Shown: positions 17,501 through 23,432, numbered from the stretch's first letter. The stretch: DNA of 64,000 nt from Zootoca vivipara (GCF_963506605.1 NC_083281.1:86986001-87050000); one strand, 5' to 3'. The notes: generated from the sequence alone by a model not told the origin. Made by a program: numbers and translations.

Positions 17501-19867
17501 GCTGCATTCTGTTAAGGTAAAGGGTAAAGGGACCCCTGACCATTAGGTCCAGTCGTGACCGACTCTGGGGTTGCGCGCTCATCTTGCATTATTGGCCGAG
17601 GGAGCCGGCGTATAGCTTCCAGGTCATGTGGCCAGCATGACAAAGCCACTTCTGGCGAACCAGAGCAGCACATGGAAACGCCGTTTACCTTCCCGCTGTA
17701 GCGGTTCCTATTTATCTACTTGCATTTTGACGTGCTTTCGAACTGCTAGGTTGGCAGGAGCTGGGACCAAGCAACGGGAGCTCACCCCGTCGCAGGGATT
17801 TGAACCGCCGACCTTCTGGTCAGCAAGCCCTAGGTCAGCACCCCCTCCCCCACAGGCCACACCCCCAATAGACCTGCTCTCAGCCTTTGGGTGATGGAAC
17901 ATGACCTTGAACTCTGACCATGCCTCTTCCTTGCCTGGATGGAGGACAGAGATTGTGTGTGTAAAAAATTAGTCCAGTGCACAAAGCTAAAATTTGCATC
18001 CATTGCTTTGTCCACTTCAACCTCTGGCCCCCAGAAGGCTGTACAGAAGGAAATGTGGCCCTTGGGTTGTTAAAGGCTTTTTCACCCCCTAGGCCCCAAT
18101 AATAAACAGTGCACTTGGGAGAACAGCATCTGAAACCAAGCCTTAGGAGGAAAGGTTGAGGGAGCTGGGAATGTTTAGCCTGGGAAAGAGGAGACTGACA
18201 CAGGATGCAATAGTCATCTTCAAATATCTAAAGGGCTGTCAAATGGAAGAGGGAACGTGCTTGTTTTCTCCTGCTCTGGAGGGTAGGACTCGAACCAGTG
18301 GCTTTCTTGTAGGGAGATTCCAACTAAACATCAGGAAAAACTTTCTGACAGTTAAGAGCTGTTCGACAGTGGAACAGTCTCCCCTGGAAGGTGGTGGACT
18401 CTCCTTCCTTGGAGGTTTTTAAGAAGAGGTTGGATGGCCATCTGCCATGGATGCTTTAGTTGAGATACCTGCATTGTAGGGGGGTTGGACTAGATGACCC
18501 TCGGGGTCACTTCCAGAATCTATAATTCTATGTTCAAACTTTCTTTCCCTTCTCAAGCTGCTTAGCAACTCCAACTGGCCTCCAGAAACCCGAGATTAGG
18601 TGGGAAGGCTTTCAGTATAATCAGGGATCTTTGCAAACTTCCAGGGGACTTTTGACCACTGGAATAAAGGCAAGGGTTTTAAAGGTGCCGACAGCCCTTT
18701 TGATTGATTTCTAGCCCTTTGACTTGTTGAATAACCAGATTACCGGGTATCAACCCTCTGAGGCAATAAATTTAAGAACAGAGAGAGACCAAACTTTGCA
18801 GAGATCATGTTGCTAATGGGCCTGGTTGGTGGTGGAATCGAATTAAGAATCAGGAGGGCGGGCTAGCAACTGGTCCATTTTTGAGCTTCAGTGGGCAAGG
18901 CTGCACCCAGAGATAGGGAATCCATGTTTCAAGTGGGGGACTTCTCTGGCCTTCCAGATGTTGATGGAACAACAGATGAAAATTAAGAAAATGAAAGGCC
19001 AAACTAGAAAATAAACACAAAGACTGAAGACAGTAGCACATGGGTTTAAAATGGGGGTGGGTGGAGTTGGATTAGTTTTGACTGCATGGAAAGGGTGGGG
19101 AGGCAGAAATGCACTCGTCACACGCTCAAATGCACCGTTGCTCTGTTGTTGTTGCTGCTTTGAAGGCTGGTCTAGGCAGGAGACACCCCCCCCTCAGCGT
19201 GTCATAGGAAGTTGTCTTAAACAGCCCAGTTACGCCTACACTGACCGGCAGCAGCTCTCCAGGGTTGCAGGCACGGTGCATTCCCAGCCCAACCCTGAGG
19301 TGCCCGTGGGAATTCAATTGGGGACCTTCTGCATGCAAGGCAGGTCCTCTCCCAGACTCCCACTCAACTCCTCCCTTCCAGCCAGGACTCCTATGGGCGC
19401 GCCTGCAATACGGAACTCGGTTCGAATCCTGATGAAGCTCCGCTGAGCTCGGGGGAGAGTTCGCGACTACGTGTAAATGCGTGCGAGGCACTCTGCATGC
19501 GCCCAGAGGAACCGTTGCCGACCAGCTGGGCTCGACAACGTCTAGAGCAGCCCGACCCACCTGCCGCCGCTGCTACGGGTTCAGCCGCCAGCCAGGCGCC
19601 CAGGATCCGCTCCGACTCGCCCCCCGCGTACATATGCGCGGTATCCACCTCGCAGTGCCCGCGGGCCAGGAACGCGCGCAGCATGGCCCCGCTGGCCGCC
19701 GCGTCTGCTCTCCGCCCGAACTCCATGGTGCCCAGCACCGAGCGCATCCCGCGGCTCTGCCCGCGTAGCCCCGACATCCCGGCGGCTGCAGCAGCTCGAT
19801 CTGCCTCCGGCTGGACTCGAACTCGCCACCAGCACCAGGTCCACGTCCTGGGCAAAGGCAATCGCAT
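11552..19867 (-). CDS. AKR7A2: Aflatoxin B1 aldehyde reductase / succinic semialdehyde reductase (aldo-keto reductase family 7A)
   Basis: Exons 19561-19867 (second in-frame ATG at 19777), 16582-16769, 15515-15619, 14200-14296, 12713-12815, 11799-11928 and 11552-11713, all GT/AG with an intact frame. Motifs: [14 protein letters not shown] (catalytic Asp/Tyr), VKVATKANP (Lys), LFYLHMPDH (His), [21 protein letters not shown] and C-terminal [15 protein letters not shown] on the - strand at 11322-11327. Confidence 0.95.
11973..12343 (+). mobile_element. Young CR1 LINE 3' end
   Basis: [26 protein letters not shown]...FKQRLD followed by an ATTCTAT-type tail. Confidence 0.92.
13192..14150 (-). mobile_element. 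5'-truncated non-LTR retrotransposon (RTE-X-like), interrupted by a Sauria SINE
   Basis: Decayed [36 protein letters not shown]...CPLYDKAR...VARFC with a C-terminal Cys motif, and a 3' end AATAAAGCTTTGATTTGATTTGA. The clade assignment is from memory. Confidence 0.65.
13236..13582 (+). mobile_element. Sauria SINE, full length
   Basis: tRNA-like head GGGACCCAGGTGGCGCTGTGG...GGTTCGAATCC, a CCTTTACC tail and a 15-bp TSD TATACCAG(C/G)TATTAA. Confidence 0.92.
14716..14966. mobile_element. Tc1/mariner (Tigger-like) MITE
   Basis: TIRs CAGTGGTACCTCGGTTT/AAACCGAGGTTCCACTG with TA target duplication. Confidence 0.85.
16795..17480 (+). mobile_element. RTE-clade LINE 3' fragment
   Basis: LLYACETW...[24 protein letters not shown]...GGRQKRFKD, the typical RTE reverse-transcriptase C-terminus. 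Confidence 0.85.
17515..17834 (-). mobile_element. Sauria SINE (5'-truncated)
   Basis: Near-identical reverse complement of the copy at 13236-13582. Confidence 0.9.
18130..18532 (+). mobile_element. CR1 LINE 3' fragment
   Basis: [16 protein letters not shown]...[12 protein letters not shown] plus the CR1 3' UTR. Confidence 0.85.
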
Positions 19868-20146
19868 CACCACTCTCTGCGCATGCGTCAGCGCCTCCTG
19901 GCCTCTCCTCCCCCGTTCTAGGAGAAGGGACCATCTCGGATTTCCTGATTCCAGAAGCAAAGGAAGAGCCTTGCCGGATAAATTCGGGTCCCTTATCCTG
20001 CCATGTCATTTTAACCTTCCTTTGTTTGTTTTATTTATTGCATTTCCATCCCTTCTTTTCCTCCAAGGAGCTCAATGTTTTCCCCTGCCGTTCCTCATTT
20101 AATCCTAGCAACAGCCCTGCCAGGTAGGCTTAGCTTGGCCGAGACT

Positions 20147-20415
20147 CATAGAATCATAGAGTTGGAAGAGACCACAAGGGCCATCCAGTCCAACCCCCTG
20201 CCAAGCAGGAAACCCCATCAAAGCATTATTGACATATGCCTGTCAAGCCTCTGCTTAAAGACCTCCAAAGAAGGAGACTCCACCACACTCCTTGGCAGCA
20301 AATTCCACTGCCGAACAGCTCTTACTGTCAGGAAGTTCTTCCTAATGTTTAGGTGGAATCTTCTTTCTTGAAGTTTGAATCCATTGCTCCGTGTCCGCTT
20401 CTCTGGAGCAGCAGA
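20147..20415 (-). mobile_element. Young CR1 LINE 3' end
   Basis: Near-identical reverse complement of 12077-12343, with an (ATTCTATG) tail. Confidence 0.92.
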
Positions 20416-22905: not shown

Positions 22906-23122
22906 CTGCCGCCGCAGCCTTGGGTTCAGCTGCCAACCAGGCGCCCAGGATCCGCTCCGACTCGCCCCCCGCGTAAATATGCGCGGTATCCACCTCGCAG
23001 TGCCCGCGGGCCAGGAACGCGCGCAGCATGGCCCCGCTGGCCGCCGCGTCTGCCTTCCGCCCGAACTCCATGGTGCCCAGCACCGAGCGCACCCCGCGGC
23101 TCTGCCCGCGTAGCCCCGACAT
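22906..23122 (-). CDS. Duplicated AKR7A exon 1 (exon 1b): candidate alternative first exon or truncated paralog
   Basis: Intact ATG, 72 codons plus a phase-1 G, donor GTGGGT. Translation [72 protein letters not shown]. It differs from 19561-19833 at 10 of 273 nt. Expression is unproven. Confidence 0.75.
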
Positions 23123-23432
23123 CCCGGCGGCTGCAGCAGCTCGATCTGCCTCCGGCTGGACTCGAACTCGCCACCAGCTGGCAAACCACTTTTTTTAAGT
23201 ACCCGTGGCGCCACGCCTTCCCTTCCCAGGTAAGGGGCCGTCTCAAATTTCCTGCAACGTCTTTTTAGAGCATGCCATTTTGTATGCCTGTTTAAAAAGT
23301 GCTGGTTTGAAGCAGTGCCTTCAGTCTGAGTGTCCTGCTAAGGTCTGGGAGACCTGGGTTCAAATCCCCACTGGGCTATGAACCCGCTTGGATGCGACCT
23401 TGTCCCTGTCTTTCTCAGCCTATAACCTACCT

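Follow-up and report, generated by a model that had tools for sequence, protein, structure and literature searches.

A duplicated first exon of the AKR7A gene in the lizard Zootoca vivipara as a candidate minor alternative first exon

Why should a single gene for an AKR7A aldo-keto reductase, a predicted aldehyde-detoxifying enzyme, carry two nearly identical first exons, and does the second of them contribute to a protein? The gene in question lies on the minus strand of a 64,000-nucleotide (nt) stretch of the genome of the lizard Zootoca vivipara (GCF_963506605.1 NC_083281.1:86986001-87050000), the whole of which is referred to here as the window, with positions counted from its first letter. 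A reading made from the sequence alone (the sequence-only reading) had proposed that switching between the first exons generates organelle-targeted and cytosolic isoforms and so mimics, within one gene, the split between mammalian AKR7A2 and AKR7A3. Our analysis points to a different role. The 5′ end of the gene was duplicated in tandem long ago and the upstream copy, exon 1b, was probably retained as a minor alternative first exon, which would skip the main first exon (1a) and splice to the shared exons 2-7 to give a predicted cytosolic enzyme with isoleucine in place of methionine beside the catalytic tyrosine. Repeated gene conversion would keep the two exons alike and selection would keep codon 49 different. 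Like human AKR7A2, exon 1a alone would yield a long mitochondrial and a short cytosolic form, so that what 1b would contribute is a further active-site variant of the cytosolic enzyme and not a compartment split.

Two first exons and one gene body

Exon 1 is present twice on the minus strand, the copies lying 3345 nt apart and forming a 282-nt repeat of 96% identity. The coding part of exon 1a spans 19561..19867 and that of exon 1b spans 22906..23122; both frames are open and both terminate in a phase-1 GTGGGT donor. Over 217 nt the copies differ at 10 positions, with four residue changes (M11V, R23K, M49I and V68K), so that DTAHMY in 1a reads DTAHIY in 1b. Codon 49 (short-form numbering), which directly precedes the catalytic Tyr, is ATG (Met) at 19631..19633 and ATT (Ile) at 22976..22978. 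Exon 1a has two in-frame start codons, ATG1 at 19867 and ATG2 at 19777, and the extension before the second Met counts 30 amino acids (aa), with 4 Arg and no acidic residue in its first 20 positions. Exon 1b has its ATG at 23122 and can start only at the second Met, since homology between the copies ends at 23178/19833 and a TAA at 23197 is the first stop encountered in frame upstream of 1b. In all of this the sequence-only reading was borne out. The start contexts, which it had called good, have G at -3 in both exons and no G at +4, and are thus adequate and not optimal.

The sequence upstream of 1a is unrelated to that upstream of 1b and each exon has its own CpG island, the one over 1b (22500..23500; observed/expected ratio up to 0.94) being equal to that over 1a (19250-20000). 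Just above ATG1, at 19869-19889 on the minus strand, lies GCATGCGC, a motif that we take to be NRF1-like; it holds an out-of-frame ATG (19884) that opens a short frame whose TGA stop overlaps ATG1. At matching places in both introns (19502 and 22823) lie related GCGCATGC motifs.

There is, as had also been noted, a single set of downstream exons, all on the minus strand: exon 2 (16582..16769) and exons 3-7 (11552..15619, comprising 15515-15619, 14200-14296, 12713-12815, 11799-11928 and 11552-11713), all with AG/GT borders. Exons 2 and 7 have one genome match each. Translation of 1a with exons 2-7 reproduces exactly the named Z. vivipara protein P0037, and 1b with exons 2-7 forms an open frame of 333 aa that is identical to the Lacerta agilis model P0041 at 325/333 residues. 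Judged by its domain (Aldo_ket_red, PF00248, E 3.6e-54) and by its closest solved relatives (four AKR7A chains in the PDB at E<=1.9e-143), the lizard protein belongs to the AKR7A aldo-keto reductases. The catalytic Asp, Tyr, Lys and His, the tetrad named in an excerpt of PMC6651818, are aligned, with DTAHMY/DTAHIY, ATK and YLH matching the human and rat chains. At three body residues, in exon 4 (14200-14296) and exons 5-6, Zootoca has Arg222, Glu266 and Lys281; in an alignment of 11 lacertid models the other 10 carry Gly, Asp and Glu at these sites.

Likely gene conversion, codon 49 and the predicted products

The duplicated unit is larger than the sequence-only reading had described and consists of exon 1, intron 1 and a stub of exon 2. 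The intron-1 copy (21368..22871, minus strand) is diverged and colinear with the original, its blocks 22871-22375, 22147-21933 and 21432-21368 matching 19550-19042, 18961-18724 and 17954-17890 at 61-72% gapped identity, and the global alignment of the two introns scores +149 as against -367 to -415 for 10 shuffles. The stub (21173..21221, minus strand) preserves 49 nt of the intron-1/exon-2 border with an intact pyrimidine tract and AG; an exon there would begin at 21192, and its use would end the protein at 81 aa. In the two longest intron blocks 129/471 and 66/213 aligned positions differ (about 27-31%), whereas exon divergence is below 5%, with ~4.8/57 synonymous sites differing (P=5e-4 at the intron rate). 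This contrast argues for an old tandem duplication of the 5′ end that was likely homogenised later by recent gene conversion. A likely conversion tract is the 56 nt directly upstream of the second ATG (23123..23178 on the minus strand, identical to 19778-19833), which are coding in 1a and untranslated in 1b and in which 0/56 positions differ.

A third copy of exon 1, also absent from the sequence-only reading, lies 20 Mb from the locus (G000:C6 at 66.897 Mb, ~66,896,380-66,897,920) and is broken by stops and a frameshift. Over 254 nt it has accumulated 23 changes (16 of CpG type); it has the 1a letters at 6/6 testable sites, and joins the upstream sequence and exon of 1a (window 20136-19577, 91%) to an inverted piece from upstream of 1b (23149-24120, 85-88%); no exons 2-7 were found in the 30 kb searched near it. 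This copy illustrates the decay of an unused exon; 1b is undecayed, with no stop and with its CpG island kept.

Cross-species comparison was made on protein models. Each of Podarcis muralis (two annotation versions), P. lilfordi and Lacerta agilis has two isoforms on a single body, one with Met and one with Ile or Phe, the Phe of P. lilfordi being a third non-Met state at codon 49, and a fused model of P. raffonei has the Ile exon followed by the Met exon, the order seen in the window. Named models of four other lacertids thus contain both first exons, and in three of these species the models splice each exon to one body; alternative models of this kind usually rest on transcript alignments. 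Codon 49 alone separates the copies in 6/6 lacertid pairs (5 species), and 0 of the other 9 variable columns does so. At codon 44, only 15 nt away, the pairs read V/V in one case (Zootoca), L/L in two and V/L in three, a pattern suggesting that conversion has run in either direction and ended before reaching codon 49. One P. muralis isoform (P0042) is without one Ala at the exon 1/2 border, which suggests a nearby alternative splice site.

Protein models of two geckos also show twin first exons. Sphaerodactylus has two isoforms, long with Met and short with Val, on one body, and a fused model of Euleptes has Met then Ile. In these gecko twin first exons (P0020, P0066, P0067 and P0001) the Met exon is upstream, the reverse of the lacertid order, and the reversed order in the fused models is the basis for treating the gecko and lacertid twins as possibly independent. 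An exon-1 tree (55 columns) did not distinguish common from separate origin of the gecko and lacertid non-Met exons (p-AU 0.27). Pogona and Sceloporus have two whole AKR7A genes each, one with a Met-type and one with an Ile-type first exon, and in a 34-protein body tree each of their non-Met genes groups with its own lineage. The same tree gave no support to the idea, which we rejected, that lacertids and iguanians share an ancient Ile-type paralogue from which the lacertid body derives. It is possible, although we lean somewhat against it, that twin AKR7A first exons arose separately in lacertids and in sphaerodactylid geckos, in opposite order, with one copy lacking the extension and carrying Ile, Val or Phe beside the Tyr, that the lacertid codon resists conversion reaching within 15 nt, and that this change, which mammals, iguanians, birds and frogs show in separate duplicates of the whole gene, is an adaptive solution attained repeatedly through duplication of either the exon or the gene.

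The residue that distinguishes the two products aligns with a site that also varies in mammals, where the motifs given in the sequence-only reading, DTAFMY for AKR7A2 and DTAFVY for AKR7A3, proved correct: PDB chains have Met before the catalytic Tyr in human AKR7A2 and mouse AKR7A5, and Val in human AKR7A3 and rat AKR7A1. Among 121/130 cluster representatives (9 were dropped for missing or double motifs), Met occurs with Trp at the KANP site in 92/99 and non-Met with non-Trp in 16/22, counts that are descriptive only since the rows are related. In AKR1C1 and AKR1C2 the residue at this place, Leu54 versus Val54, forms part of the pocket lining (excerpts of PMC5349110 and PMC12947632); for AKR7 enzymes the excerpts consulted report no effect of the site. 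The principal specificity determinants named in a review are other positions, rat position 77 being the most effective switch and 110 a useful one (PMC6651818, in the part available). Their equivalents are both encoded by the shared exon 2 and in the lizard are Leu (KANPL) and Met (LHMP), as in human AKR7A3, and not the Trp (KANPW) and Ala (LHAP) of the AKR7A2 type. Thus, at the exon-2 pocket, both lizard isoforms are A3-like by sequence and neither is a mimic of AKR7A2. The product of 1a does have an AKR7A2-type extension and Met before the Tyr; that of 1b shares with AKR7A3 the lack of an extension, a branched residue before the Tyr and the exon-2 Leu and Met.

Geckos, skinks, a tegu, an anguid and turtles also have basic extensions before a second Met, and in two geckos these start with MRLP as they do in lacertids. 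Since single-model geckos, skinks and others have it, the extension is ancestral, its start having been lost from, or never included in, 1b. Its charge in the first 20 residues is +4/-0 in 1a and +3/-0 in human AKR7A2, and it is predicted to be a likely mitochondrial tag; the best hydrophobic moment of the 1a N-terminus (0.55) is positioned late and is not above that of extension-less forms. In human AKR7A2, residues 1-29 send green fluorescent protein to mitochondria, and, if its 5′ untranslated region is short, one mRNA also yields a cytosolic/nuclear form by initiation at the second AUG (PMC11974929, in excerpt). As human AKR7A2 achieves this output with two AUGs and 1a has both in frame, 1a alone would serve both compartments, and exon choice is unneeded for an organelle/cytosol split. 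The claim that a first-exon switch underlies such isoforms is therefore not supported in the form proposed, and of the suggested mimicry of the AKR7A2/AKR7A3 pair there remains the parallel at the Met/Ile site and in the pattern of the extension.

RNA evidence and competing explanations

Four runs were aligned to 15400-23500 (raw reads X22 and X23; contigs X11 and X1), with ~6% of each run read. One read of X22 crosses the junction 16769-22906 with GT..AG ends, and its fragment carries the 1b letters at 22936 and 22976 (Ile), with 1b letters also read at 23054, 23055 and 23092. Exon 1b is able to splice to exon 2, as the sequence-only reading had anticipated, at a minor level. Raw-read depth over 1a in two bins was 11.9/9.19 in X22 and 4.58/3.09 in X23, equivalent by rough estimate to coverage reaching ~19853-19870, which is compatible with a start near ATG1. 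X22 has ~5,700 letters on 1a versus ~244 on 1b, the latter from the one fragment; X23 has ~2,080 on 1a and none on 1b. The four runs show no depth in the stub bin (21091-21361), the raw runs also have none over a cryptic exon in intron 1b (21842..21957, minus strand), and no start sites were found in the same four runs.

Several points weigh against the reading of 1b as a retained alternative first exon. Its share of exon-1 coverage is ~4% in X22, none in X23 and ~3% pooled, and the single fragment constitutes all direct RNA support. The 1a junction is missing among the junctions listed, and there is therefore no 1b:1a junction ratio. The species' own named model (XP_060132243.1) joins 1b not to exon 2 but to the cryptic exon at 21957 and ends in a shortened product of 110 aa. 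The X11 and X1 contigs placed on the 1b junction show a Met exon joined to exon 2, and we rejected their joints at 16769-22906 as support for 1b as they carry Met and other 1a-type letters; X11 has 14 letters other than those of 1b, 5 of the 9 listed being 1a letters, and the count fits the 10 diagnostic sites plus 4 others. X11 in addition runs through 1b-specific upstream sequence to 23231 and continues with 1127 nt from elsewhere. It ties the 1b-specific upstream sequence to a Met exon, which could come from a merge in assembly or from complete conversion of 1b in that animal; the second possibility would break the 6/6 pattern. That pattern is itself weakened by the relatedness of the six pairs, two of which come from one species, and the sites shared by such near-identical exons could in part be assembly or polishing errors. 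Single models of Rhineura and Elgaria pair Ile with a long N-terminus, so that Ile is not tied to a cytosolic or short form. Any effect of codon 49 on AKR7 kinetics or localisation is predicted by analogy. The 1b isoform may be weak or tissue-restricted in Z. vivipara.

The main rival explanation is that 1b is the remnant of a lost second gene, kept intact passively by conversion from 1a and by a CpG island that serves as promoter of the neighbouring PQ-loop (SLC66A1-like) gene, with leaky splices and an Ile that is old and neutral. The stub and cryptic acceptors between 1b and exon 2, the shortened own-species product, the low share of 1b and the opposite-strand donor at 23229 that matches the end of X11 are in keeping with it, and conversion alone can explain the open frame. 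We consider it unlikely, because codon 44 has been homogenised in both directions and codon 49 has not, P. lilfordi has Phe there, a third non-Met state, full-length 1b-type models exist in three species, and the raw reads leave the stub and the cryptic exon without depth. The strict switch between an organelle-targeted A2-like enzyme from 1a and a cytosolic A3-like one from 1b draws on the parallel with human AKR7A2 (extension, Met) and AKR7A3 (no extension, Val); it is quite improbable given that human AKR7A2 reaches both compartments from one mRNA, that the A3-like exon 2 is common to both isoforms and that few of the transcripts in the runs examined come from 1b. A false duplication of exon 1 in the assembly, to which the high identity over 282 nt might point, is already refuted and retains practically no probability: flanks and introns are colinear and have diverged strongly, letters specific to 1b occur in a read, both exons are present in models of four other lacertids, and the dispersed broken copy includes pieces from upstream of each. 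A retained minor alternative first exon is thus the explanation we judge probable.

The end of X11 concerns the neighbouring gene. On the plus strand a splice donor (23220..23235, exon end 23229) lies above 1b, and X11 leaves window sequence at 23231, the point predicted by a donor at 23229/23230 spliced to 27725; the joined form was not seen. X11 therefore likely includes an opposite-strand transcript merged in assembly, and the PQ-loop gene (exon at 27725) probably has a second or alternative first exon, starting in the 1b CpG island, to which the donor belongs. The PQ-loop gene also has a CpG island and donor-like site near 24950-25295; its second coding exon gives a Pfam match and its first coding exon does not. 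The single AKR7A gene of the window is flanked by this gene and by an MRTO4-like gene (RL10P_insert), which we take, assuming human synteny, to be SLC66A1 and MRTO4. In the MRTO4-like gene (plus strand, 8650-8727 and 9567-9700) the last exon is seemingly out of frame when the obvious donor and acceptor are joined, the continuation being judged by a motif that we presume for this gene; an assembly error or another splice site is possibly the cause. A 93-nt element occurs in three near-identical copies around the two promoters (23428-23520, 24806-24898 and 28434-28582), one of them inside a near-perfect palindrome.

Comparison with known systems

Human AKR7A2 (PDB 2BP1) resembles the lizard protein in family, in fold residues (E 2.9e-155), in a ~30-aa basic extension before the second Met and in Met before the Tyr. 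It differs in having one first exon, with compartments set by start-codon choice (PMC11974929, as far as the excerpt goes), and in having Trp and Ala, not the Leu and Met of the lizard, at the pocket positions that exon 2 encodes. Human AKR7A3 (2CLP) and rat AKR7A1 (1GVE) resemble the 1b product in lacking an extension and in Val before the Tyr, and AKR7A3 has Leu and Met as the lizard body does. Unlike the lizard exons, these are separate whole genes, and their sequences read GAM in place of GTM and AIT in place of ATT, substitutions absent from the 1b-type isoforms; the body tree joins human AKR7A3 with AKR7A2 (100/100) and places lacertids apart, which speaks against common descent of the 1b product with mammalian AKR7A3. 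The Pogona and Sceloporus pairs are like lacertids in that each genome holds a Met-type and an Ile-type first exon, whereas each of their genes has its own body and the Ile-type genes group with the Met-type genes of their own lineage and apart from the lacertid body. In mammals AKR7A copy number has been linked to herbivory (PMC11797053, in part). No paper on squamate AKR7A first exons was found in the literature searched, which excluded subscription papers; twin-exon isoforms are already in public gene models and are undiscussed in that literature.

The design of variable first exons is itself already known from genes of the UGT1 type. UGT1, GCNT2 and the clustered protocadherins have tandem first exons with their own promoters and shared downstream exons, and UGT1, like AKR7A, encodes a detoxifying enzyme (excerpts of PMC1885805 and PMC3325998). 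The lizard locus shows the same layout, with duplicated coding first exons, same-phase donors and one constant exon set, and the RNA that bears on the corresponding splicing consists of 1 fragment for 1b and 2 contigs in which exon 2 follows a Met-type exon. It departs from the UGT1 type in having only two copies, which are near-identical and encode ~70/333 residues, and in that the consistent differences are one active-site residue and a targeting-type extension. The locus would illustrate in compact form how selection can act against gene conversion at the scale of a single codon, and how a partial duplicate can turn into an alternative first exon, apparently twice in squamates. With two isoforms on one body and a consistent difference only before the catalytic Tyr, it would also provide a natural one-residue experiment in which the role of this site in AKR7 specificity is directly testable.

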